IMG/VR virus record: IMGVR_UViG_2933279956_000001
Coordinates: 39,805-103,804 of that record
Length of the DNA stretch: 64,000 bases
DNA from: a virus
Lineage: Duplodnaviria; Caudoviricetes
Strand: one strand, 5' to 3'
Shown here: piece by piece, positions 39,565-64,000 of the stretch
Numbering within the stretch: position 1 is the stretch's first letter
How the letters are laid out: each line of letters opens with the position of its first letter
The notes under the pieces: model-generated
Database searches by the model: none
What the model was told of the DNA's origin: nothing
What the model saw: the letters and a program-made list of their open reading frames with translations, nothing else
Translations under genes and position numbers: made by a program

Positions 39565-40163
39565 GGCAGGCCGAGGGCGACGATGAGGGCCAGGTCGTCG
39601 GCGCCGGGGTTGCCTCGGGTGACAAGCTCGATCTTCGGCTGCTTCAGGTGCTTGAGGAGGACGCCGCGTAGTTCGCCGCGGGCGGTGTAGGCGAGCCGGT
39701 AGGAGGATGCCGGGAACGACACTGCGTACCAGGGGTCGGCTGCCTGCCCCGACCGGATGACGCCGTCGACGTTGTCGGCAGTCCAGCCGTCGCACAGGCA
39801 CAAAGGGTCGCCGCAGCGGCGGGCAGAGCGCGGTGTCTGCCGGTAGCGGTCGAGCCGGCCGGCGAGCATCGGGCAGGACTGGCGGCTGTAGTCGGCGCAC
39901 CAGCGATGCTGGGCAGGTTCGTTGATCCAGCCGCGCATCATGTCGGCGGGCCGCACCATGGCCACCGCGGTGTTGGTGGGCTTGCCCAGGGGTTCGCCGC
40001 ACAGCTGGCACAGCCCGGCGCGCAGGAACGTGGCCACCTTGTCGAAGTCGACTTCGCCGAGGATCGGGGTGTTGTCGCGGTGCCGGATGGTGATCGCCGG
40101 GATGAGGAGGCCGTTCCAGTGGGGCAGATGCCGCAGCTGGCGAGGGATCGGGGTCTCGTTCAT
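39558..40163 (-). CDS. Cys-rich actinophage-type protein
   Basis: LCQLCGEPL, EP..H..CA.YS...CPML. Confidence 0.65.
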   Translation of the reverse strand: MNETPIPRQLRHLPHWNGLLIPAITIRHRDNTPILGEVDFDKVATFLRAGLCQLCGEPLGKPTNTAVAMVRPADMMRGWINEPAQHRWCADYSRQSCPMLAGRLDRYRQTPRSARRCGDPLCLCDGWTADNVDGVIRSGQAADPWYAVSFPASSYRLAYTARGELRGVLLKHLKQPKIELVTRGNPGADDLALIVALGLPW

Positions 40164-54423: not shown

Positions 54424-55225
54424 CCCCCCTCCCCGCCGTACTCCGACCTGGTGACGTCACGGGCAGCAGTCGCGAACTCGTCCGCGTAATGCCGCAGAAG
54501 CTTGGCCCGCTGCCGGGCAGACGACACATTCGCCAGGACGTTCATCAGGTACCGGTGCGCGGTCGCGAACTCCTCCTCCGGCGTGGGAGCGGCCTTCAGC
54601 CGCGCCTCCCAGCGGGCCGTGCGCGCCTGGGCCTTCGACCGGGCGTCCGGCATGAACCTCTCTCCTCCAGTGGCTACACACGGTGACTGTCGGGGCGGTG
54701 TGCTACCGTCCTTCGCGTGCACGTGCGCGCACGTGCGTGCACCGGCGCGTAGCCCCCCAATCCGGCTCCCACCAGCGGTTCCATCCCGGCGCCGCCCCCT
54801 CCCGCAGCGGCTACGCAGCGTGGCATTCACACCCGCTCCTCGCCGAAGAACACCTGACGAGCGCGCCGCAGCAGATGCTCGGACTCGCCGCCCGATGGCA
54901 CCCGATCGAAGGTGCCGTCCACGAAGCCGCCCAGAGCGGCCTGGTCGGTCCACCACAGCCGGTCGTCGTCGGGCAGGACGACCAGGAGCCGCCCCAGGTG
55001 TGATGCCGACGCCTGCAGCTTCAAGCCGGCGTGCTCGGCGTAGCCTCGGTGGATGCGCGACAGCGTCACGCGCGGGCAGACGGCGATGACCACCTCGCCG
55101 GCGTCCTCGCGCATCTCGGTGAGGGTGATCCGGTCGGGGGCGGTGTCGTCGTAGGTGGCCCACAGGCTCCGGATGGTTGTCGGGTCGTCGTCGAGGCGGA
55201 GGACGAGGTTGAGGTGGTCTCTCAT
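54420..55225 (-). other. two small genes (54420-54653, 54827-55225)
   Basis: RBS-preceded or coupled ORFs in the tra operon. Confidence 0.5.
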
Positions 55226-56739
55226 GAGGGCTCCCCCGAAGGGTGGGTGTGGGCGGGGTTCGGGTACTCGTCACGCAGCCGCACGGCGATCTCGCGCTTG
55301 GTGCCGACGACGGCCTTGATGCCGTCGGCGGTGAGGTGGGACGGGTCAAGACGACCCGCACGGATCGCCGCGTAGAAGTCGGCTTCGACCTGCTCGAAGG
55401 TGCGGCGACGCACGATGGGGTGGCCACCCTTCAGCCGGACGGAGCGGGCCCTGGGGCGGGTCTTCGGGGTGGGGGAGGGGCGGGTCGCTGGGGTGGGCTT
55501 GGGGTGGGCGTCTGGGGTGGGGGAGGGGCGGCCCGTAAGGGTGGGCTTGGGGTGGCCGTTGACCTGGCCACCGTTCACCCGGCCAGCGCCCACCCCAGCC
55601 CCCTGACGACCGCCCGCCGGGGGAGCGGCGGGCCGGGGGAGCGGCACCAGGGAAGAGGAGCCGCTCCCCACACCCCCGCGGGTCGCGTACGCCTGCGCCG
55701 GGAACCGGTCAGCGAGCCAGTCGGTGATGCTGGCCACCGCGTTCTCGCCTACCAGGTCCTGCAGCTCGGCCATCCGGATCGACTCCGGCGCGAGCCGCTT
55801 CGGCCGCACCAGCCGGCCGTCAGCGCCGAGCAGCAGCTCCCCGTCGGCGGCGAGCTCCAGGTCCTCGGCCACCTGCCGGGCCAAGACCGCCGCCGCGACC
55901 GTCCGCTCGGCCCGGGTCGAGGTGGGGCCCACGCCGTACCGGTCTCGCCACGCCAGATGCCACGCCTGCTCCGTCGAGCAGGCCGGGCCAAGCGCCGTCC
56001 GGGTCGAGTGCGCCGCCCAGTGCAGGCGGGGGTAGCGAATCCACCGCCACAGCTGGATGCGCAGCTCGGCTATCGACCGGCCGCCCGCGACCTGCGCGTT
56101 CTGCATCGCGGTCAGCTCCCACTGGAGCACGCCCAGCAGCGAGCACAGCGCCAGCACCACACCCCGCGACAGCGACCCGGACTCCGCCCCGTGCCACAGG
56201 TTCATCACGGCCGCCGCCCCGGCCAGCAGCCACGTCGCCATCCGGTAGCGCAGACTCGGCAGCCCATGCGTGATCGCCCGGTGCGCCAGGAACGCCTGGT
56301 ACCAGGCCGCCCCCTCCAGCGCCACGGGCAGCACCCACGACCACCCGCCGAGGCCGAGCTGGTGCTCGCCGTACTCCGACTGGCCGCGCCACGCGATGAC
56401 GATCGGGGCGCCCATCGCGATCACGCCCAACAGGTACGGCACCGCGTCGCGAACGCCCGCGGCCGCCGCGGCGACGCCACGCCGGCTCCTGATCCAGCGC
56501 GCGGCCGACGCCTTGACGCGGGCCTGCCGCCTGTCGGCCTTCAGCTTCAGCTTGGCCGCGCGACGAGCAGCTTTCCGCTCTTCCGCGCGACGGGCCTGGT
56601 CGTCCTCCAAGCTGAGGGCGCGTGCCCGGCGCTCGAGCGCGCCGTTGGCGCGGACCTGCTCAGCTTCGGCCGCCGACTTCTCGCGCAGACCGGCCGCGAC
56701 GTCGCGGGCGGCCTTGCCGTACAGCGGAGGCGCGCTCAC
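55222..56739 (-). CDS. DUF2637/SpdB-like membrane protein with coiled coil and C-terminal HTH
   Basis: Coiled coil, four TMs (AW.GQ, P.ALEG, N..HG), Pro-rich repeats, C-terminal HTH-like segment. Confidence 0.7.
   Translation of the reverse strand: MSAPPLYGKAARDVAAGLREKSAAEAEQVRANGALERRARALSLEDDQARRAEERKAARRAAKLKLKADRRQARVKASAARWIRSRRGVAAAAAGVRDAVPYLLGVIAMGAPIVIAWRGQSEYGEHQLGLGGWSWVLPVALEGAAWYQAFLAHRAITHGLPSLRYRMATWLLAGAAAVMNLWHGAESGSLSRGVVLALCSLLGVLQWELTAMQNAQVAGGRSIAELRIQLWRWIRYPRLHWAAHSTRTALGPACSTEQAWHLAWRDRYGVGPTSTRAERTVAAAVLARQVAEDLELAADGELLLGADGRLVRPKRLAPESIRMAELQDLVGENAVASITDWLADRFPAQAYATRGGVGSGSSSLVPLPRPAAPPAGGRQGAGVGAGRVNGGQVNGHPKPTLTGRPSPTPDAHPKPTPATRPSPTPKTRPRARSVRLKGGHPIVRRRTFEQVEADFYAAIRAGRLDPSHLTADGIKAVVGTKREIAVRLRDEYPNPAHTHPSGEPS
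55440..55560 (-). repeat. cluster of about nine CCC(A/G)CCCC-like 8-mers (clt/TRS candidate)
   Basis: Imperfect direct repeats encoding HPKPT/RPSPT inside the spd-like gene. Confidence 0.45.
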
Positions 56740-56954
56740 TGCCGCTCCTCGGGCAGCACCCACTGCTCGCCCAGGTACGCGCGCACCGCCGACTCCGGGA
56801 AGCGGCGGTGGCCGCCGGGGGTGAAGATGCAGCGGAGCTTGCCGTCGTTGGCCCATCGGCGCACCGTGCGCGCGTCGACGCGGAAGAACGCGGCCACCTC
56901 GCCCGGCCAGTAGCTCGGCTCGGGGAGGCCAGGAGGCTCGGCGGTCGCCGTCAT
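56736..56954 (-). CDS. BldC-family MerR-like HTH protein
   Basis: PGEVAAFFRVDARTVRRWANDGKLRCIFTPGGHRRF closely follows the BldC pattern PAEVA..FRVDPKTVTRWA..GKL..IRTLGGHRRY. Confidence 0.85.
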   Translation of the reverse strand: MTATAEPPGLPEPSYWPGEVAAFFRVDARTVRRWANDGKLRCIFTPGGHRRFPESAVRAYLGEQWVLPEERQ

Positions 56955-57048
56955 GGAGGGTTCGCCCTTCCGGGAGGGGGATTGTGCAGGTCAAGAACCG
57001 AACCGGAGATCCGGCCAAGAGGTTCGACACCAAGCACTTCCGGACATT

Positions 57049-57082
57049 CGTAGGTCTAACGTAGGGCTACGTTAGACCTACG
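57049..57082. promoter_or_regulatory. Kor/GntR operator: CGTAGGTCTAACGTAG-GG-CTACGTTAGACCTACG
   Basis: Perfect 16-bp inverted repeat between the tra operon and the divergent GntR gene. Confidence 0.75.
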
Positions 57083-57208
57083 GCAAGAGGCTTTTCAAAA
57101 CACATAGCCCTACGGCCGCTACTGAATCGCCCACAGCGGGGGGCTAAGGTAGGGCCAACCTGGGAAACTCCATCCCAGCGGCGGGGAGGGTCGGATTGGA
57201 GAACGTGC

Positions 57209-57964
57209 ATGCCTAGGGCGCCGATGAAGGCCCAGGCGATCGCCGACAGCGTCAGAGCGAAGATCGACAGCGGCGAGTACGCCCCCAGCTCCTGGCTACC
57301 TCCGATGGCCGAACTCGCGCGCCTGCACCAGTGCGACCTGTCCACCATCCGCAACGCCATGAAGCTCCTGGCCGCCGACGGCCTGGTGGAGCTCTTCAAG
57401 GGCCAGGGCGGCCGCGTCCTGGACCGTGGCGCCGGCCTGTCCCGCGAGACGTCCGACATCAGCACCCAGGTGGGTCAGTGGCGGGGGTTCGCCGTCTCTG
57501 TCCTGGCCAAAGGCAAGGAACCGTTCACCGACACCACGATCACCGAGCTCGACGCCGTCGAGGACGTGGCGCTGCGCCTCGCCGTGCCGATCGGCACCCG
57601 CGTACTGGAGCGGGCCCGCGTCCAGGGCGTCGCGGGCGAGCCGCCCATCCAGCTGTCCACCACGTACCTCGCGTGGGAGTGGGTGGAACTGGTGCCGCGC
57701 CTGCTGCAGGTCGACACCGGGCCGGGCGGCATGTACTCCCGCCTGGAGGAAATCGAGTTCCCGCTACTCCTGTGCGAGGACCGGCTCGTCGCGGCGCACG
57801 CCGACGACCGCGAGCGGGAGCTGCTGCAGATCGACGTCGACGAGCCGGTCGTCGTCGTGTGGCGCACCTCCTACACCCACCATCACAAGATCATTGACGT
57901 GACGCGGCGCGTCGTCGTGACCCGCCGCAGCCCGCTCGTCTACCGCTATGGACCCGGAGCGTGA
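57209..57964 (+). CDS. GntR/HutC-family repressor with UTRA domain (Kor-like)
   Basis: GntR HTH plus UTRA (PIQLSTTY, DTGPGGMYSRL); divergent from tra genes. Confidence 0.88.
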   Translation: MPRAPMKAQAIADSVRAKIDSGEYAPSSWLPPMAELARLHQCDLSTIRNAMKLLAADGLVELFKGQGGRVLDRGAGLSRETSDISTQVGQWRGFAVSVLAKGKEPFTDTTITELDAVEDVALRLAVPIGTRVLERARVQGVAGEPPIQLSTTYLAWEWVELVPRLLQVDTGPGGMYSRLEEIEFPLLLCEDRLVAAHADDRERELLQIDVDEPVVVVWRTSYTHHHKIIDVTRRVVVTRRSPLVYRYGPGA

Positions 57965-57967
57965 CCG

Positions 57968-58528
57968 TTGTTGACCCCGAACGCCGAGCACCCCATCGTC
58001 CGCACCGGCACCCGCGTCGTCTACGACAACCCGTACATGCGGGTCATCGAGGACAACATCCAGCGGCTCGACGGCACCACCGGCATCTACTCCTACATCG
58101 AGAAGCCCGACTTCGCGCTGGTCATCGCCGCCGAAAACGACGGCTTCCACATGGTCGAGCAGTACCGCTACCCCGTCCGGGACCGCAGCCTGGAGTTCGT
58201 CCAGGGCACCTTCCCCAACGGCGCCGACGGCGACCCCTTCCAGCTGGCCCACGATGAGCTGCAGCAGGAGACCGGCTTCACCGCGGCCACCATGCGCCAC
58301 CTCGGCCGGCTCAACTGCGCCAAGGGCATGTCCAGCCAGGGCTTCAACGTGTTCCTCGCCACAGACCTCACCCCGGGCATACCGGACCTGGAGGTCGAGG
58401 AGCAGGACCTCACCCACCGCTGGCTGCCCCGTACGCAGGTCGAGGACCTCATCCGCTCGGGCGGCATCACCGACGACTCCACGCTGGCCGCCTATACCTT
58501 GTATCTGCTGATGGGGTCTGGTCGCTGA
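57968..58528 (+). CDS. NUDIX hydrolase (ADP-ribose pyrophosphatase-like)
   Basis: VEQYRYP, LEF..G, Nudix box A..EL.QETG, ITD..T.AA. Confidence 0.88.
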   Translation: MLTPNAEHPIVRTGTRVVYDNPYMRVIEDNIQRLDGTTGIYSYIEKPDFALVIAAENDGFHMVEQYRYPVRDRSLEFVQGTFPNGADGDPFQLAHDELQQETGFTAATMRHLGRLNCAKGMSSQGFNVFLATDLTPGIPDLEVEEQDLTHRWLPRTQVEDLIRSGGITDDSTLAAYTLYLLMGSGR

Positions 58529-58732
58529 CGCCACCCGCGCCGGGATGCCATCATGGACGCAACCGGCTTTTCATGGTGGTCTTCGGGCCTCGTGTTGGCT
58601 TGGTTTCGGGTAATTCGACGGCCTCCGGGCGCTAGGGGTAGCGCAGCTTTCCGGAGGCCGTCTTGCACGTACCCATAGTGGTGTCTTCGGTCCGCTGCGG
58701 CAGCGTTGCCGCAGGCGAGGAGCGGCTTTGCA

Positions 58733-59938
58733 TTAGCCGCCCTCGGCCATGTTCCCCTCACCATCAGCCTGCGCTAGTTCCTCGGGAGTGGCGAGCCGCA
58801 ACGTCTGCCACCCATCCGCACCATCCTCCTCCCGCCAGGCTGACGGCCATCGCCGTTTGACCTTTGCGGCGACCGGCGCTACTCGCACGTCGCTTAGGTC
58901 AACGTTCTCCACCCCCATCGCGTCGTCGAACCGGACATCGCCGCAGAAGGTCGCGCCGTCGAACCGGGCGTCGCGGGTGAAGGTCGCGCCGTCGAACTGG
59001 ACGGCACCGGTGAAGGTCACGCCGTCGAACCCGGCGTCGCGGGTGAAGGTCGCGTCGTTGAACCCGGCGTCGCGGGTGAAGGTCACGCCGTCGAACCCGG
59101 CGTCGCGGGTGAAGGTCACGTCGTTGAACCGGGTGTTGCCGGAGAAGGTCGTGCCGCCAAACCGGGCGTCGCTGATGCGGCAGTTGCCGAGGTCGAGGTC
59201 GACCAGGATAGCGCCAGTGAGGTCGAGGCGGATGTCCGCCCAGTAGCGAAGGTTGGGGTCGGCGGGGCGTGGCTGCCACCAGCGGTGTGTGTCCAGGGCC
59301 CGGTAGCGCAGATGGTCGGCCAGGATGCGCTGGGCGGTCAGCCGGACCTGACGTTCTTCGTGTGGGTCGCGGGTGGGCGTGGGCGCGGGCTTGGTGACAC
59401 CGCCGACCGCAGCCCGTGGGACGGCCGGCTCAGTTTCGGACTTCTCCTCGTCCGGAAGCTGGTAGGGCATCCTGAGATATGCGCAGATCACGTCCACGAT
59501 GGTCTGGCGCAGGGTGGGATTATCTTTGCCCAGGCGCTCCAGTGCGTAGAGGCCTCCGAGCCGTACCGGGGCCTGGGCGTTTCCGAGTTGCTCGACCGCC
59601 TTCGCATACAGCTCGGTGACGCGGCGTTCCGCCGCGTCATGGGTGACGTGCCAGGTTGCCACCTCCTGGTGACGCTGCCGCCGTACCGCCAGTAGCAGGG
59701 TCACACCGGCACCGACCCCTGCCGCGGCCGCGAGCGCGGTGCGCAGGGCCTCGATCCGGGTGGAGACCTGCTGAGGGATCGGCAGGTGAGGAAGCCCTTG
59801 AAGTAGCCATTGCGCGGTGCCCCAGGCGGCGGCGCCGATGAGCAGCGCGCCGGGCAGGACCCACCACAGCATCGAGCGTGGAGGACGCAACTCGGGCGGT
59901 CGTGACGGCGGTCGGGGGGAGCGGCGAAAGGGCCTCAT
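58733..59938 (-). CDS. membrane-anchored pentapeptide repeat protein
   Basis: TMs, ELYAKAVEQLG..VRLGGLYALERL, RQTIVDVICAYLR, FTRDAGFDGVT repeats. Confidence 0.88.
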   Translation of the reverse strand: MRPFRRSPRPPSRPPELRPPRSMLWWVLPGALLIGAAAWGTAQWLLQGLPHLPIPQQVSTRIEALRTALAAAAGVGAGVTLLLAVRRQRHQEVATWHVTHDAAERRVTELYAKAVEQLGNAQAPVRLGGLYALERLGKDNPTLRQTIVDVICAYLRMPYQLPDEEKSETEPAVPRAAVGGVTKPAPTPTRDPHEERQVRLTAQRILADHLRYRALDTHRWWQPRPADPNLRYWADIRLDLTGAILVDLDLGNCRISDARFGGTTFSGNTRFNDVTFTRDAGFDGVTFTRDAGFNDATFTRDAGFDGVTFTGAVQFDGATFTRDARFDGATFCGDVRFDDAMGVENVDLSDVRVAPVAAKVKRRWPSAWREEDGADGWQTLRLATPEELAQADGEGNMAEGG

Positions 59939-60005
59939 GCCCTCATTGCACCGTGGATGTCGCGGCGGCGGTCCGGGATGCCCAAGTCGTAATCAGGCGC
60001 AGCAT

Positions 60006-60836
60006 ATGACAGCCGCACCTGTCGAAAGTCGACTTGACAGGCTAGCCTGTCACCTCGTGAGCCGAGCCCAGGACGACCTCAACCGCCAGACGACGGCCGA
60101 GCGGGTGCGGGCGCTAGCGCTGGAGCTGGCGGGACAGCTGAGCCACCGCGGCTCCTCTGTGCGCGACGACGCCGCGGGCCAGCTTGCGCTCATGCGGGCC
60201 GCGGACCTCGTGCGCGAACTCGCCACCGAGCTCGTCGACGGCGCCGCATTGGCCGCCGCCCGGACCGGAGAGGTCACCTACACGCAGCTAGGCCAGGCGA
60301 TCGGCATCAAGCGGCAGAGCGCCCGCACCCGCTGGCCCGACGCCATCCCGGAAGCAGTCCGCCGTCCCGGCAAGCGGCCCGCCGCTGCACCCGTCGCCGA
60401 GGTGAGCACTACACCCCTGGACGTAGAGCCAGGCATCGAGCTGGATGCCTCGGACCAGGACCTGGCGCTGCCGTACAAGAAGGACGCCGATCCGGTACGG
60501 CGCCGCCGCTGGTTCACCGCCGCCCAGCTCGCCGACGTCCAGGTGGTGGCGACCGGCCGCGACGACGGCTCGCACTTCGTGATCGTCGCCGGATACCTGC
60601 TGGGCACGGTCGAGCCGCACCTCAGTGCCAGCGGCCGCCGCTCCGGTTGGGATGCCCGTCACCGCGGTGGCAGCCTGGCCTGGCACCTCGGTACCGGCGT
60701 CAAGGGTGGCGGCACCCGGGCCGCCACCCGCGACAAAGCGGTCACCAACCTGATCTCCGACGTGCATCATTCCTGGCGCAACCACCAAGATCGCGCCCAG
60801 CGCGACACCGTCCTACGAGAGATCGACCCCACCTGA
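60006..60836 (+). CDS. HTH-containing hypothetical protein
   Basis: TYTQLGQAIGIKRQSARTRW HTH. Confidence 0.6.
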   Translation: MTAAPVESRLDRLACHLVSRAQDDLNRQTTAERVRALALELAGQLSHRGSSVRDDAAGQLALMRAADLVRELATELVDGAALAAARTGEVTYTQLGQAIGIKRQSARTRWPDAIPEAVRRPGKRPAAAPVAEVSTTPLDVEPGIELDASDQDLALPYKKDADPVRRRRWFTAAQLADVQVVATGRDDGSHFVIVAGYLLGTVEPHLSASGRRSGWDARHRGGSLAWHLGTGVKGGGTRAATRDKAVTNLISDVHHSWRNHQDRAQRDTVLREIDPT

Positions 60837-60851
60837 GAACGGAGAGCCACA

Positions 60852-61355
60852 ATGGAACACACCACCCCCGACCCAAACCCGCGCCCCGTGGCGAACCGCC
60901 TCTTCGACAACGACGACTTCCACCGCCGCGCAAACGCCGACGATGCCCTCCGTGCCTATTTCCGCTGGGCCGATGTCGAATGGGACGAGGAGGTCCAGAA
61001 GATCGGCCAGGGCGAGGACCGCACCGCGTTTCTCGTCAACAGCATCGTGTACAAGCTGGGCTCCCGGGCGTCCGCCAACGCCTACGACCACCAAACGCTC
61101 GAAGCCGCCCGCCGGGCCGGGAAGCCGTGGGCGCCCCCCTCCTGCCTCTTCGAGATCACTACAGAGTTCGGCGTCCAACACGTGATGGCCATGCCGTACA
61201 TCGTGAGCGACGGCACGGACGCCGATCCGGACGCTCTGGCCCGGATGTTCAAGGACGCCGGGGACGAAATCGACTTCACGAACTACAGCGTCATCAACGG
61301 CCAGCCGATCGTCATCGATGGGTGTACTGTCCGCCGGGGCTCCTGGTACGCGTAA
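60852..61355 (+). CDS. minimal protein-kinase-like protein
   Basis: IGQGEDRTAF Gly loop, VYK, MPYI hinge, DEIDFTN, PIVID. Confidence 0.45.
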   Translation: MEHTTPDPNPRPVANRLFDNDDFHRRANADDALRAYFRWADVEWDEEVQKIGQGEDRTAFLVNSIVYKLGSRASANAYDHQTLEAARRAGKPWAPPSCLFEITTEFGVQHVMAMPYIVSDGTDADPDALARMFKDAGDEIDFTNYSVINGQPIVIDGCTVRRGSWYA

Positions 61356-61459
61356 CGGAGCGCGCTGGCCCTCGAACATGCCCGCGCCGGCGAGCTGCTG
61401 GCCGCGCTGCGCACCAACCACCCCGACCCCACCAACCCGCCGTCGCCGAAGGGCTCCGC

Positions 61460-62839
61460 ATGACCAGCAACGTCGCCTACCGCCTCAACCACGACCAGGA
61501 CAGCACCAGCGCCTCCGACGGAATCTCCCGCTACGGCGCCTACCTACGGCTGAACGCCCACAAGTTCGCCGCGGCTTTCGAGTACGCCAACGCAGCCGAC
61601 TTCGCCGCCGTCGCCTTCGAGGTCGCCACCGCGCCGATCATGACGCCCGCCTACGCGCAGGAGCACCGGCGCATCATCACCACCCGCCTGGCACCCTTCT
61701 CCGAGCACCTGATCGCCCGCGTCGAGCTGGTCACCGGCCGTCCAGACGCGTTGCGGGCCCCGGCCTTCCGCGGCGAGTCACGCTGGTACGGCTGGCCCAC
61801 CAGCGCCAGCGCGTTCGGCGCCCACTCCTACCTGCCCGACAGCGACGACATCGCCGAGCGCTCCTACCTGCTGACCTCCACCACCGCCCACTTCGCCCTG
61901 ACCGCCGCCGAGCTGCCGCTGCCCGCCGGGCCCGACGACGAGATCGAACTGCACGCCATGCGCGCCCTGGAGATCGTCATCGACCAGCTCAACGACGTCC
62001 TCAACCCGATCATCGCCGCCCTCGAACGCGACGGAATGGGAGCGCGGTGATGGCCTACACCGCCCAGGAGGTCGCCGACATGGCTCACCACATCCGCAAC
62101 TGCCAAAACTGCGGCGCCGGCGACCCCGACATCGTCGGCGACACCTACGCCGAGGATCTTCCGCCCGAGGAACTGGCCAGCTACATCGCCTCATCCCACC
62201 GCTTCGATGCCCACCTTCGGAACACCGTGAGCGGCTCGCCGTTCTGACGTTCCCCTGGCGCGGTTTCGGCTGCCCGCTATTGTCGAACATGTGAACGAGA
62301 CTCACTGCCGGAGGATGGCCGCGCAGGCGCGCACCCTGGCCTGCGCCCTCCTGGCCGCCGGCGAGGTGTTCCCGACGCTGCTCGGCTACCACCGGCAGTA
62401 CGGCGACGCCCTCGTGGAGCTCGCCGACCTGGCCGACCGCAGCACCGGCGCCCAGATGCAGCGGCGCACCCGGGCGCTGACCGCGATGGGGCACGTGCTG
62501 CACGAGGCCCTGCGCATCCGCTACGCCGACGGTCTGGCCGCGCACGCGGCCCGGCTCGGCATCACCGCGTCCGAGGTCGAGCAGCGTCTTCATCCGCCGC
62601 TGCCCGCCGAAGACGCCGACGACGACGAACGCGCCGCGTACGAGCGCAGCATCTACGGCCGCTCCGCCCTGTGGCACAAGCTTGGCATCACCGGCCTGAC
62701 CGGCGACGACCGGCACGCTGCCTTCCAGCTGATCCGCCTGGTGTGGGTGAGCGCGAGCAGCCGCGCCGACATCGAGATGTTCCTGAAGCGGCTCGAAGCG
62801 CTGGTGTACGCGCTACGGGACTCCACCACCAAGGTGTGA
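61460..62839 (+). other. three hypothetical genes (61460-62050, 62050-62247, 62291-62839)
   Basis: High GC3 natural ORFs. Confidence 0.6.
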
Positions 62840-62918
62840 TGTCCCTCACCGAATTCCCGGATGCGAAAGCGCATCCGAGAATGTACGGTCGTGACTGTAG
62901 TTCCCCGGTCGGTTCAGA

Positions 62919-63014
62919 CGGGGTTGCGGGGGCGCGGGTCGAACGAACATCGGTTATCACCTTGCAAAGATGACACCCCGGTGTTCATTCCTACATCCGC
63001 GCTTCTACAGCTTC
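62919..63014 (+). ncRNA. Y RNA-like gene 1 (short, without T/D arms)
   Basis: Terminal stem, GGGTCGAA...TCGGTTATC 5' motifs and ACATCCG 3' motif shared with units 2-4. Confidence 0.7.
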
Positions 63015-63024
63015 GTGTGGCCGG

Positions 63025-63188
63025 TGGGGTGTGATGAGGGCACGGGTCGAAGTCCTGTCGGTTATCGCCTTGTATGCGGGTGGTCGCAGGTTCAAGTCCT
63101 GCTCGGAGCTCCGGCTCCGGTAGCTCAGTTGGCAGAGCGCCTAAACGGCCGGTGGGCATCCCCACATCCGTGCCCCCATCACACCCCA
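63025..63188 (+). ncRNA. Y RNA (YrlA-like) gene 2 with permuted tRNA-Thr(UGU) module
   Basis: Long terminal stem, GGGTCGAAG; loop CTTGTAT, T arm GCAGG-TTCAAGT-CCTGC, closed acceptor stem, D arm GCTC-AGTTGGCA-GAGC. Confidence 0.88.
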
Positions 63189-63197
63189 TGTGATCAG

Positions 63198-63354
63198 TTC
63201 GTCAGCCCGGCCGGGCGCATGGGTCGAATCCAGTCGGTTATCGAAAGCAGATACAGGTTCGACTCCTGCGACAGCCCGTTCAGGCTGTCCGGCCCAGGTC
63301 GGCTGGGCGCCCGGCTCGGAGCACCACATCCATGCGCCCGGCCGGGCTGACGAA
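63198..63354 (+). ncRNA. Y RNA (YrlA-like) gene 3
   Basis: Perfect long terminal stem, GGGTCGAA, T arm CAGG-TTCGACT-CCTG, acceptor-like GACAGCC/GGCTGTC, D-like hairpin. Confidence 0.85.
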
Positions 63355-63359
63355 ACCTC

Positions 63360-63502
63360 GGGGAGGGCGGGTCGAAGCATGATCGGTTATCGCCTCTGGA
63401 GCGAGTAGTTCGGGTTCGAGTCCCGGCGAGCGGCCCAGGCCGCTCGTGGTGTAACGGCAGCACGCTTCCACGGCCGGTCCGCACCCCACATCCGCCCTCC
63501 CC
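63360..63502 (+). ncRNA. Y RNA (YrlA-like) gene 4 with permuted tRNA-Gln(CUG) module
   Basis: GGGTCGAAG; loop CTCTGGA, T loop TTCGAGT, acceptor CGAGCGG-C-CCA-GG-CCGCTCG, Gln-type D arm TGGTGTAACGGCAGCAC. Confidence 0.88.
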
Positions 63503-63507
63503 TCCCT

Positions 63508-63535
63508 CACATCCGCCCCTGTCGGGGCGGGTCGA
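63508..63535 (+). promoter_or_regulatory. permuted Y-RNA helix hairpin in the Ro60 leader
   Basis: CACATCCGCCCC-TGTC-GGGGCGGGTCGA, 7 nt upstream of the AGGAGG RBS at 63543-63548. Confidence 0.6.
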
Positions 63536-63554
63536 TCCCCTCAGGAGGTGCCTC

Positions 63555-64000
63555 ATGGCCCGCGATCCTCTCGCCAGCATTTCCGCAACCGAAACTCCGC
63601 AGACACGGCCGATCCCCGGCCGTACCGACCAGGTCCGCAATAGCGCGGGCGGCTTCGTCTTCGACAAGGACCTGTGGAACCGCCTGGAGGACTTCCTCAT
63701 CCTGGGCACCACGGGCGGTACCTACTACGTGAGCGAGGAGAAGCTCACCGCCGACAACGCTGGCGTCCTCTTCCAGGCCATCGCTGAGGACGGCCCGCGC
63801 GTCGTGGCCATGCTCACCGACATGTCGACCGCCCACCCGCCGCGGGCTCCGAAGCAGCGGCCCGCTCTGTTCGCTCTTGCCGCCTGCTATGCGAAGGGCG
63901 ACCCGGACACCCGCCAGGCCGCCAAGCTCGCGCTGGCGAAGGTGGCGCGGACGACAGATCATCTCGCCCAGTTCTTCGGCTACTACAAGAACCTGGGCGG
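63555..64000 (+). CDS. rsr: Ro60/TROVE domain RNA-binding protein (5' part, runs off the window; absent from ORF track)
   Basis: MARDPL...QVRNSAGGFVF..DLW.RL..FLILGT.GGTYY...RAPKQRPALFALA...RT..HL..F; AGGAGG RBS. Confidence 0.93.
   Translation, partial: MARDPLASISATETPQTRPIPGRTDQVRNSAGGFVFDKDLWNRLEDFLILGTTGGTYYVSEEKLTADNAGVLFQAIAEDGPRVVAMLTDMSTAHPPRAPKQRPALFALAACYAKGDPDTRQAAKLALAKVARTTDHLAQFFGYYKNLG

Follow-up and report, generated by a model that had tools for sequence, protein, structure and literature searches.

The tRNA-like effector modules of two Y-RNA units lying 5' of a Ro60 gene are, judged from their sequences, probably complete tRNA replicas circularly permuted at positions 28/29, rather than tRNAs from which the anticodon arm is missing. 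The two units, numbered 2 and 4, belong to an array of four (62894–63502) that precedes a Ro60/TROVE gene in a 64,000-nucleotide stretch of DNA, here called the window (positions 39,805 to 103,804 of IMG/VR record IMGVR_UViG_2933279956_000001). The element that carries this Ro60 locus is 104 kb long and recorded as viral, and the nearest Ro60 loci are found in Nonomuraea genomes. All four units show the GNCGAA...GGTTAYC/CYACATCC motif arrangement, each with a form of GNCGAA(N0–1)G (Table 1). The array ends 52 nt before a TROVE-domain ORF (PF05731, E 8.3e-07; phrog_850, RNA-binding protein), and a vWA-like continuation of this gene was found at the start of the same contig. By its motifs and position, the array is one of YrlA/YrlB-type Y RNAs of a single Ro60 locus. 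Unit 1 has a short hairpin but neither T nor D arm and is therefore YrlB-like. Unit 3 lacks the conserved anticodon hairpin, and both of these units fall short of the full set of T, acceptor and D arms. The Rfam models responded weakly: cmscan of 55000–64000 at E ≤ 1 gave a single match, a partial YrlA (RF02553) at unit 2 (63078–63144, model positions 23–87) that scored 38.2 bits where the gathering score is 69; in the same scan, unit 4 had no match and there was none to RF00005 anywhere.

Table 1. Features of the Y-RNA array and of the Ro60 gene, numbered from the first letter of the window
Feature	Positions	Strand	Details
Unit 1, Ro-binding-type stem	62894–63010	+	GTCGAAC (GNCGAA) from 62938; CYACATCC at 62991; model R1 match 62935–62999, 34.7 bits
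Unit 2, whole	63028–63185	+	basal stem 63028–47 with 63169–85; GTCGAAG 63046–52; model R1 131.6 bits
Unit 2, helix P2, 5' strand TGTCGG	63056–63061	+	pairs with 63149–63154; helix 99.1% paired
Unit 2, anticodon-type hairpin	63066–63078	+	stem 63066–68/63076–78; loop CTTGTAT 63069–75; TGT 63071–73
Unit 2, G42 and G43	63079–63080	+	pair with C28' (63141) and C27' (63140) on the strand 3' of the D arm
Unit 2, variable loop and T arm	63081–63102	+	TGGTC 63081–85; T arm 63086–63102
Unit 2, closed acceptor hairpin, 7 bp	63103–63120	+	loop TCCG 63110–13; G1–C72, C2–G71
Unit 2, positions 8–9, D arm, G26, C27'C28'	63121–63141	+	D arm 63123–38; G26 63139; C27'C28' 63140–41
Unit 3, T arm and degenerate D-like hairpin	63200–63352	+	GTCGAAT 63223; model R1 58.5 bits (63220–63332)
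Unit 4, whole	63360–63502	+	GTCGAAG 63371–77; P2 63381–86 with 63474–79; model R1 101.6 bits
Unit 4, anticodon-type hairpin	63391–63405	+	stem 63391–93/63401–03; loop CTCTGGA 63394–63400; CTG 63396–98
Unit 4, variable loop and T arm	63406–63426	+	T arm 63410–26; TAGT as in real tRNA-Gln(CTG)
Unit 4, closed acceptor hairpin, 7 bp	63427–63446	+	loop CCCAGG; C73-CCA 63434–37
Unit 4, positions 8–9, Gln-type D arm, G26, C27'T28'	63447–63466	+	D arm 63449–63; G26 63464; C27'T28' 63465–66
Ro60 (TROVE) gene, 5' part	63555–63998	+	ends at contig edge; PF05731, E 8.3e-07

An earlier note on this DNA had described units 2 and 4 as tRNAs grafted onto the Y stem in the order anticodon arm, variable loop, T arm, closed acceptor stem and D arm. 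This order is present in both units, and every sequence feature lies where the note had placed it. In the model that we propose, the chain would enter from the Ro-binding stem, to which helix P2 connects the tRNA module of unit 2, and would supply positions 29–31, a 7-nt anticodon-type loop and positions 39–43. The variable loop, T arm, closed 7-bp acceptor hairpin and D arm would follow, and positions 26–28 would end the module by pairing back on 42–43 before the chain rejoins the Ro stem. Ro60 may thereby be held by the stem while an L-shaped, isoacceptor-like tRNA is offered to tRNA-recognising proteins. Ro binding, processing and function are ascribed to these units by analogy with other species and should be read as putative. 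Of sequencing runs, one of DNA and none of RNA is on record for this locus.

The point of permutation differs from that first suggested. A cut between positions 26 and 27 had been proposed, with an A27–G43 pair; the 27–43 pair forms in 0 of 55 aligned rows. The partners of 43 and 42 are the two bases that follow G26, which places the break at 28/29. In unit 4 these composite pairs join A42 and G43 (63404–05) to T28' (63466) and C27' (63465). The Rfam-style 4-bp closure of unit 2 (63078–81/63139–42) overlaps the composite pairs and was not counted separately. At 28/29 the break runs into the Ro-binding helix on both strands, and nothing in the structure there suggests religation into a linear tRNA.

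Pairing was scored on an alignment of 57 units (55 distinct rows) made with MAFFT, blind to structure. Related loci numbered 61 (57 genome and 4 viral), each retrieved through its Ro60 relative, and most of them, though not all, had motif-bearing Y units 5' of Ro60. Over the 55 rows, 97.6% of the alignment cells were paired, compared with 80.6% in shuffles and at most 46.7% with slid partners; such shuffle counts are not probabilities, because the rows are phylogenetically related. The hairpin proper has 3 bp only and was 95.7% paired among the 55 distinct units, with compensatory changes in two of its three pairs (30–40: CG in 31 rows, GC in 22; 31–39: AU in 28, CG in 18, GC in 8). The composite pairs were 98.2% paired, 27'–43 being GC in 53 of 55 rows and 28'–42 forming in 54 of 55 (GC in 47, AU in 7). 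In the register of the earlier note, pair 28–42 would read UG in 34 rows, UA in 7 and CG in 1, with 13 gaps. The T arm (97.8%), the acceptor (96.4%, with both-sided changes in all seven pairs) and the D stem (98.6%) were also paired with compensatory changes, and units 2 and 4 each possess all three. Among 130 T-arm-bearing Y units drawn from the window and the 61 related loci, 57 had a 7-nt loop that bears T33 and R37 and is closed by three or more contiguous pairs, where shuffles expect 2.9; the 57 is an undercount, because the register search missed unit 2 of the window. Single-sequence minimum-energy folds behaved differently. For unit 2 the register shifted by two (loop UGUAUGC) and the model was not reproduced, and for unit 4 UGGAGCG paired with the strand after the D arm to give an open stem. 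We set these folds aside in favour of the covariation and count them as counter-evidence.

The loop is conserved in a pattern of its own. In 42 distinct orthologues of unit 2 we found C32 in 40, T33 (U33) in all 42, A37 in 41 and A38 in 40 of 41, unit 2 itself carrying T38. Positions 34, 35 and 36 had entropies of 1.75, 1.69 and 1.12 bits, and 34–35 varied most within the loop. Over four divergence bins their difference rate was 0.29, 0.62, 0.65 and 0.70. The acceptor loop, which came second in speed in each of the three closer bins, had rates of 0.21, 0.42, 0.48 and 0.55; positions 32, 33, 37 and 38 differed in 0–0.05 of comparisons. Selection would on our model retain the stem and loop positions 32, 33, 37, 38 and partly 36, and positions 34–35 would turn over fast, yet with triplets that are mostly ones borne by real tRNAs. 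Since the triplet is not conserved, nothing here shows it being read. Pairing and loop conservation in homologues together support the earlier view that each module mimics an entire permuted tRNA, its anticodon-type arm included.

Re-permuted in silico, units 2 and 4 were called by ARAGORN as tRNA-Thr(tgt) and tRNA-Gln(ctg), as the earlier note had predicted. With the 26/27 cut these calls persisted up to –ps118, and with the 28/29 cut the highest setting still calling a tRNA was –ps125. The default threshold does not discriminate, because with the 17-nt arm shuffled a tRNA was still called in 281–282 of 300 and 275–276 of 300 cases; at –ps115 shuffled arms passed in 8 of 300 and 5 of 300. Once re-permuted, the units show all four arms, a class-I variable loop and an anticodon loop of 7 nt that has U33 and a purine at 37. 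As encoded, they do not make a continuous cloverleaf with free acceptor ends, the acceptor being closed by a loop of 4–6 nt. A tRNA-Phe called by ARAGORN on the native sequence (63010–63112) spans two units and was rejected as an artefact.

Different units imitate different tRNAs, as had been proposed, the comparison being with the tRNAs of one Nonomuraea genome, reached via locus L004. All six units with a TGGTGTA-type D arm, including unit 4, were closest to tRNA-Gln(CTG) (78–92%; next 73–76%), units with a TCGTCYA D arm were closest to tRNA-Glu (80–83%), and arrays mix units of different identities. The Gln identity of unit 4 was borne out: its body shares 85% identity with tRNA-Gln(CTG), the runner-up reaching 73%, and the TAGT variable loop and CTG agree with it. 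In sequence terms, unit 4 copies tRNA-Gln(CUG) in its body, in its variable loop and in its anticodon. The loop CTCTGGA recurs in Streptomyces phage Satis, and CTG is found together with a Gln body across hosts as far apart as Nonomuraea, Streptomyces and Microbacterium phages. The Thr identity given to unit 2 did not survive the comparison. Its best body match was tRNA-Trp (88%), the tRNA with TGT ranking 28th of 55; G1–C72, offered as a Thr feature, is the commonest closing pair of the whole set (31 of 55), and the 42 unit-2 orthologues bear 15 different triplets. On these comparisons, unit 2 is a generic body with a drifted triplet. Over homologues, anticodon and body were associated, the tRNA of the same anticodon having a mean rank of 14.0 vs 21.4 ± 1.8 after shuffling (0 of 2000 shuffles as low). 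All seven loop nucleotides were identical to a real Nonomuraea tRNA loop in 35 of 55 loops, and among CTNNNAA loops this held for 32 of 38, with 15.4 expected. The N73-CCA that had been pointed out inside the acceptor loop of unit 4 is part of a recurrent in-register feature (6 of 49 vs 0.88 expected; 7 of 5000 shuffles reach 6), found also in 10 of 65 cases in other phyla. The acceptor loop of unit 2, TCCG, encodes no CCA.

Phage records with the same design 5' of their Ro genes are prophiGD43A-5, Satis and Rizal, the last of which we take to belong to the same phage cluster as Chen's ET08. The design is also present in phages Phabba and A3Wally and in nine other actinomycete genomes. Several phage records annotate such RNAs as tRNA genes or small proteins. 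Across many phyla, in an alignment fitted by the model from loci preselected by the YT-NNN-R spacing pattern and not by pairing itself, the hairpin was 86.6% and the composite pairs 90.2% paired, with GC/AU/CG swaps, and positions 32, 33, 37 and 38 were nearly invariant. The same arrays contain many units without the hairpin, either of an open type (5-bp stem, e.g. ACAGG/CCTGT) or armless. The Rfam YrlA model gave nothing above cut-off over 151 Actinomycetota genomes, and several of its sub-threshold matches there were tandem tRNA genes, so that this sweep could not serve as an unbiased sample. Tandem duplicate tRNA genes score 50–59 bits on positions 23–98 of our own model, and partial matches to those positions, being tandem tRNA genes, were rejected as Y RNAs. 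The module likely originated at the junction between tandem tRNA gene copies.

According to the available text of Chen et al. (2014), GNCGAA(N0–1)G lies near the 5' end of YrlA, RNase P cleaves the M. smegmatis YrlA, to which CCA is added in vivo, and the partners of the bacterial Y RNA tRNA-like domain are unknown. As far as the accessible parts of the published accounts go, the units share with YrlA (RF02553; Chen et al., 2014; structure in Wang et al., 2018) a location next to rsr/Ro60, GNCGAA, near-invariant T and D arms that flank a closed, acceptor-like hairpin (order T, acceptor, D), an additional, fourth stem-loop 5' of T that is noted in many YrlA members and, with the M. smegmatis member, a 7-bp acceptor stem, there processed by RNase P. 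They differ in that neither the published model nor the solved Salmonella RNA, in the same accounts, shows an anticodon loop, the additional stem-loop being termed a variable arm, whereas here an arm with a 7-nt loop would stack on two pairs made by the post-D strand, the loops copy real anticodon loops and the gathering score is missed. Chen et al. (2014) interpreted their 'V' stem-loop as a variable arm; going by that text and by phage Rizal, it probably corresponds to our hairpin. D. radiodurans Yrn1 is likewise a Y RNA bound by Ro and has a T-arm-like element. In the drawing by Chen et al. (2014) it bears a possible 'anticodon arm' whose stem has 5 bp, but the loop has 6 nt, the D arm is doubtful, the arms are oriented differently, and isoacceptor likeness is unreported in the available text. 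Viral tRNA-like structures (TYMV, BMV TLS) and tmRNA are also tRNA mimics that engage tRNA enzymes, and a preprint, in its available part, describes an anticodon-domain mimic and a free CCA end in the TYMV TLS; the TYMV and BMV structures stand at RNA 3' ends and are charged, whereas the acceptor here is closed as encoded and the mimic sits on a Y RNA stem. No earlier description of an anticodon-bearing YrlA was found in the literature searched.

The permuted tRNA genes of Cyanidioschyzon merolae and two-piece permuted tmRNA place the 3' half first and join the acceptor ends by a short linker, and are processed into ordinary functional tRNA or tmRNA. Our module shares the order of halves and the short linker, and a tandem-duplication origin is plausible. 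It differs in being embedded in a putative Ro60-binding RNA and in its break inside the anticodon stem at 28/29.

We consider it very improbable that the hairpin corresponds to the variable arm of a tRNA, as the 'V' stem-loop was read by Chen et al. (2014), with P2 as the anticodon-stem equivalent and no anticodon arm at all. The hairpin does begin directly after TTAY, and the S. Typhimurium structure, in the available part of a preprint, is without an anticodon loop. However, a separate class-I-type variable loop of 4–5 nt (TGGTC, TAGT) lies between hairpin and T arm, the loop has 7 nt with T33 in 42 of 42 and A37 in 41 of 42 orthologues, and 35 of 55 loops equal real anticodon loops. The 3-bp and 2-bp parts would stack into a tRNA-like 5-bp stem right after position 26, and in units 2 and 4 the D arm and P2 are 7–9 unpaired bases apart. 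A relic of the source tRNA genes, kept for fold stability and with a triplet and isoacceptor likeness that are functionless now, also seems unlikely. Fifteen triplets in 42 orthologues, the many array units that dispense with the hairpin and the resemblance of tandem tRNA genes to the module all fit such an origin. A relic would decay, yet the stem covaries, positions 32, 33, 37 and 38 are near-invariant across phyla, the triplets are enriched for real anticodons and CTG stays with the Gln body in hosts as far apart as Nonomuraea, Streptomyces and Microbacterium phages.

What a complete replica would do is a further matter, and it is doubtful that the arm is kept as bait, competitive inhibitor or sensor for anticodon nucleases or tRNA-targeting toxins, with mixed arrays covering several targets. 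The fastest-changing positions, 34–35, are flanked by the most conserved sites, the triplets are biased to real anticodons, arrays combine different identities, and the design is present on phages and on a mobile element; Hughes (2020), in the portion available, had already raised the idea that YrlA blocks an anticodon nuclease by competition. Against this, positions 34–35 outpace the acceptor loop by a modest factor of about 1.3–1.5, which fits lack of constraint, and Salmonella YrlA is uncleaved in the same portion of Hughes (2020), although this RNA lacks an anticodon loop and so bears less on the question. No nuclease or toxin gene is consistently linked: Ro-locus flanks were dissimilar among the five loci inspected, and Pfam and PHROGs searches of eight neighbouring ORFs in the window were uninformative, returning GntR/UTRA and DUF2637 only. 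More doubtful still is that RNase P cuts at +1 and 3' trimming to N73-CCA yields a two-piece tRNA that is aminoacylated and used, or protected from exonucleases. The 7-bp acceptor stem of both units is the RNase P determinant of Chen et al. (2014), whose M. smegmatis YrlA acquires CCA in vivo, but charging is shown for no Y RNA in the available text. The excess of in-register N73-CCA, with the 10 of 65 in other phyla, and the Gln-type body with CTG in unit 4 would suit this fate; 43 of 49 loops are without an encoded CCA, the loop of unit 2 has none, unit 4 has C1–G72 and C73, and its orthologues bear CGG, CAG or GTG on the same body. Such triplets on a Gln body would break identity, which involves anticodon recognition.

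Our results suggest that the Y RNAs of units 2 and 4 are a closer imitation of particular tRNAs than the published model allows. In Y RNAs of this kind, Gln and Glu isoacceptors are copied clearly and Arg-, Asn-, Asp- and Lys-like ones less clearly. The Rfam model misses actinobacterial members, and several phage records list such RNAs as tRNA genes or small proteins. A wider proposal, which we regard as an outside prospect, concerns the Ro60-bound Y RNAs of actinomycetes, of cyanobacteria and of the phages of both. These would be programmable replicas of tRNAs, specific for an isoacceptor and possessing a true anticodon loop, an acceptor of 7 bp and often N73-CCA, and RNase P cleavage would turn them into two-piece tRNAs tethered to Ro60. 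With such arrays a cell, a phage or a mobile element might bait, sense or block readers of the anticodon loop (nucleases, synthetases, modifiers of 34/37), or the replicas might become charged, and the turnover at 34–35, fast yet biased to real anticodons, might record retargeting. If the domain is a full tRNA, the candidate partners would be enzymes that recognise the anticodon end in place of generic binders of the elbow or acceptor, and hypotheses on charging, on t6A37 or m1G37 and on cleavage or inhibition of anticodon nucleases would become directly testable.

Four tandem Y RNA units lie within the final 1.1 kb of the window. The adjacent Ro60 gene is truncated at the end of the single 103,804-base contig, with its TROVE part at the contig end and a vWA-like DSSGS continuation at the contig start (bases 1-300 of the source record, G000:C1:1-300). 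No overlap was found between the two contig ends that split Ro60, and the record, which is classed as viral, is therefore probably a gapped assembly that is circular or permuted. The sole Rfam hit to YrlA covered the core of unit 2 (63078-63144) and scored 38.2 bits, short of the gathering score of 69. A few kb upstream of the array are genes for a DUF2637 protein and a GntR/UTRA regulator (55222-57033 (-) and 57209-57964 (+)), and the six ORFs between these genes and the Y array had no match to Pfam or PHROG families.

Y RNA units and Ro60 gene at the end of the window
Feature	Position	Evidence
Y RNA unit 1	62894-63010	GNCGAA...CGGTTATC and CYACATCC motifs
Y RNA unit 2	63028-63185	GNCGAA...CGGTTATC and CYACATCC motifs
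Y RNA unit 3	63200-63352	GNCGAA...CGGTTATC and CYACATCC motifs
Y RNA unit 4	63360-63502	GNCGAA...CGGTTATC and CYACATCC motifs
Ro60 ORF with TROVE domain	63555-63998, 3' of the units	Pfam PF05731, E 8.3e-07; PHROG 'RNA-binding protein'

The features that the earlier note listed for units 2 and 4 are all present where it placed them. With the Ro60 fragment as query, we retrieved 57 genome loci, mostly from Nonomuraea and other Streptosporangiaceae, and 4 viral contigs; most of the loci carried three or four Y units upstream of Ro. Of 130 T-arm-bearing units, 57 (2.9 expected from shuffles) had a 7-nt loop with T33 and R37 that was closed by at least three contiguous pairs; the figure is an undercount, window unit 2 having been missed owing to a competing register. 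The other units included degenerate types like window unit 3 and 'open' YrlA types, whose 5-bp stem (e.g. ACAGG/CCTGT) joins the strand preceding the variable loop to that following the D arm. After exclusion of about ten open-type units and locus L018, 66 hairpin-bearing units were aligned with MAFFT (A1). Counts were taken from alignment A2, which holds 57 of these units (55 distinct rows) and leaves out nine rows of one type with the stem shifted by one base.

The proposed structure was paired in 97.6% of the cells of A2, compared with 80.6% in shuffles and at most 46.7% with slid partners. Over the 55 distinct rows, the three hairpin pairs were formed in 95.7%, with pair 29-41 as CG in 48 rows, 30-40 as CG in 31 and GC in 22, and 31-39 as AU in 28, CG in 18 and GC in 8. 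Pair 29-41 failed in six rows, each with C on both sides (3' strand GCCGG); where the post-D strand was read in these rows (loci L002, L011, L013, L037 and L046), CCG followed the D arm, and the post-D strand thus takes over the 29-41 pair. The earlier note had opened the tRNA between positions 26 and 27. Its pair 27-43 (A with G) formed in 0 of 55 rows, and its pair 28-42 was UG in 34, UA in 7 and CG in 1, with a base missing in 13. Instead, the first base after G26 pairs with 43 (GC in 53 of 55 rows) and the second with 42 (54 of 55 rows; GC 47, AU 7, a change on both sides). This indicates that positions 27 and 28 directly follow the D arm, at their tRNA-like place in the anticodon stem, and that the break in the chain falls between 28 and 29. 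Among more distant relatives, pairs 27'-43 and 28'-42 together took the forms GG/CC, AG/CT, CC/GG, AA/TT, CG/CG and GC/GC.

The hairpin proper is short, and the minimum-energy folds of units 2 and 4 favour other pairings for this segment. In the minimum-energy fold of unit 4, UGGAGCG (63397-63403), which spans part of the hairpin's loop and its 3' strand, pairs with CGCUUCCA after the D arm (63463-63470), yielding an 'open' YrlA-like stem. This pairing was not conserved among the orthologues inspected by eye, and could be chance or a switch. When the units were re-permuted in the way the earlier note had proposed, ARAGORN drew tRNA-Thr(tgt) and tRNA-Gln(ctg), but the call at the default threshold says little: with the 17-nt arm shuffled, a tRNA was still called in 281-282 of 300 trials for unit 2 and 275-276 of 300 for unit 4, as the T, D and acceptor arms are enough for a call. 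Raising the setting to -ps115 let through 8 of 300 shuffles for unit 2 and 5 of 300 for unit 4. The real sequences cut at 26/27 passed up to -ps118, and both units re-permuted at 28/29 were called up to -ps125.

The loop of the hairpin has the frame of an anticodon loop. Among 42 distinct orthologues of unit 2, C32 was kept in 40, T33 in 42, A37 in 41 and A38 in 40 of 41. The triplets were non-random but not conserved, with 15 different ones present and entropies of 1.75, 1.69 and 1.12 bits at positions 34, 35 and 36. In pairwise comparisons, positions 34-35 were the fastest class in every divergence bin (0.29, 0.62, 0.65 and 0.70); the acceptor loop (0.21, 0.42, 0.48 and 0.55) was second-fastest in the three closer bins, and positions 32, 33, 37 and 38 stayed at 0-0.05. 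Because the pairwise comparisons are not independent, we take this turnover to suggest that constraint is absent or weak, and not to prove diversifying selection. Compared with 69 real tRNAs from one Nonomuraea genome, 35 of 55 distinct loops matched a real anticodon loop in all seven bases, as did 32 of 38 CTNNNAA loops (15.4 expected). Positions 36 and 37 were linked as in real tRNAs (T36-A37 31, G36-G37 9, G36-A37 2).

Identity was examined by comparing the D arm, variable loop and T arm of each unit with real Nonomuraea tRNAs. For each of the six units that have a TGGTGTA-type D arm, among them window unit 4, the closest was tRNA-Gln(CTG) (78-92%; runner-up 73-76%). The real tRNA-Gln(CTG) shares the TAGT variable loop and G37 with unit 4, which also carries the CTG triplet, and the Gln identity assigned to unit 4 is borne out. 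The combination of CTG and Gln body recurs in Streptomyces phage Satis (identical loop CTCTGGA) and Microbacterium phage A3Wally; the same body in orthologues of unit 4 bears CGG, CGG, GTG and CAG. Units with a TCGTCYA D arm were closest to tRNA-Glu (80-83%), with CTC kept in 1 of 3. Many unit-2-type bodies were closest to tRNA-Arg(TCT) (86-95%); its loop, CTTCTAA, is also the one seen most often among the Y loops (9 of 42). For the 51 units whose triplet is present among 55 class-I tRNAs, the same-anticodon tRNA had a mean rank of 14.0, compared with 21.4 ± 1.8 when shuffled (0 of 2000 as low), and ranked top in 10 units against 5.0 expected (28 of 2000), both figures being inflated by relatedness. 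Triplet and body are associated over the set, but window unit 2 departs from this. It was most similar to tRNA-Trp (88%), the TGT tRNA ranked 28th of 55, and G1-C72, offered as a Thr feature, is merely the commonest closing pair in the set (31 of 55); the Thr reading is therefore unsupported.

The C-CCA noted in the acceptor loop of unit 4 is present and recurs among homologous units. Of the 49 loops with 4 nt or more, 6 had N73-CCA directly after the 7-nt 3' strand, those of all three Glu-type units among them (0.88 expected by composition; 6 reached in 7 of 5000 within-loop shuffles). Among the matches listed from other phyla, it was found in 10 of 65 units.

A covariance model built from A2 was used to search more widely. 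The same architecture lies upstream of Ro genes in Mycobacterium prophage prophiGD43A-5, Streptomyces phage Satis and Bixzunavirus Rizal (loop ATTGCAA). Mycobacterium phage Phabba carries a full, unannotated YrlA-type unit (L117:1500-1627; loop CTGTCAA) inside a long tRNA array, with no Ro gene within 1.5 kb. This unit lies between tRNA-Val and tRNA-Glu, near a tmRNA gene. Nine further actinomycete genomes were positive, with loops such as CTACGGA, CTGTCAA, CTGTTAA, CTCTTAA and CTCTCAA. The Rfam YrlA model gave nothing above cut-off over 151 Actinomycetota genomes. A pattern scan of a genome collection yielded at least 80 loci in Cyanobacteria, Chloroflexota, Actinomycetota, Planctomycetota, Acidobacteriota and other phyla. 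Among the matches listed, the model matched 81 places in these loci; 47 had a 7-nt loop and all three hairpin pairs, 37 of them also with both composite pairs. In the broad-phylum alignment of the matches listed, which was model-fitted and for which the scan preselected loop form and spacing, not pairing, pairing reached 86.6% in the hairpin and 90.2% in the composite pairs, with GC, AU and CG as alternatives. The hairpin is real, conserved and widespread.

Some of these RNAs are misannotated in phage records. That of prophiGD43A-5 (L116:1476-1554) is annotated 'tRNA-Thr (tgt)', starting in the Ro-binding stem, and in A3Wally (L118:1444-1572) the 42-aa 'hypothetical protein' gp192 is laid over a Gln-type Y RNA. 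A similar false call came from ARAGORN on the native window: its tRNA-Phe (63010-63112) straddles units 1 and 2 and is an artefact.

Partial model matches (positions 23-98, 50-59 bits) were tandem duplicate tRNA genes with short spacers, such as the two tRNA-Asn(GTT) copies in the actinomycete loci L129, L130, L132 and L133. The stretch that begins at the anticodon arm of the first copy and ends at the D arm of the second is collinear with the Y module, and this extends to the closed acceptor. The Asn copies lie 4-5 nt apart (discriminator and one further base excluded), and the 3' acceptor strand of copy 1 can form a hairpin with the 5' strand of copy 2. Collinearity and the encoded CCA make a tandem-duplication origin of the Y module plausible. 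The 28/29 break common to different tRNA bodies may reflect independent captures, two-tract gene conversion or convergent mimicry. About 17 tRNA genes are packed closely together in a Nonomuraea chromosome (G001:C1:11257443-11259984). Some are atypical, such as a tRNA-Pro(TGG) whose D arm is Gln-like, and the cluster may be a tRNA array of a mobile element. Two short Y RNAs, window unit 1 (62935-62999) and the second Y RNA of phage Rizal (L297:1666-1729), align to the model as YrlA minus the 63-nt stretch from variable loop to D arm and keep a small hairpin after GGTTATC, which suggests that YrlB-type RNAs derive from YrlA through loss of the tRNA core.

In passages of Chen et al. 2014, YrlA mimics the D, T and acceptor arms, and a passage of a 2018 structure preprint states that it 'lacks the anticodon loop', whereas the module in units 2 and 4 would comprise a whole tRNA including an anticodon-type arm. 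We found no description of an anticodon-bearing YrlA in the literature searched or in passages of a 2026 preprint on tRNA mimics, although published drawings may come closer to one than the texts do. From their sequences, units 2 and 4 appear to be Y RNAs of the YrlA type in which a complete tRNA, permuted at 28/29, forms the effector module. Unit 4 reads as a tRNA-Gln(CUG) replica with encoded CCA, and unit 2 as a generic body whose triplet has drifted. That the units bind Ro, are processed and have a partner is presumed from other species. What is new here is the reinterpretation of what is probably the published 'V' arm of YrlA, the stem-loop read as a variable arm by Chen et al. 2014, as an anticodon-type arm. 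A passage of Hughes et al. 2020 raises the possibility that YrlA might competitively inhibit an anticodon nuclease. The module might serve as a bait for anticodon-reading enzymes or as a chargeable two-piece tRNA, and both ideas can now be tested.
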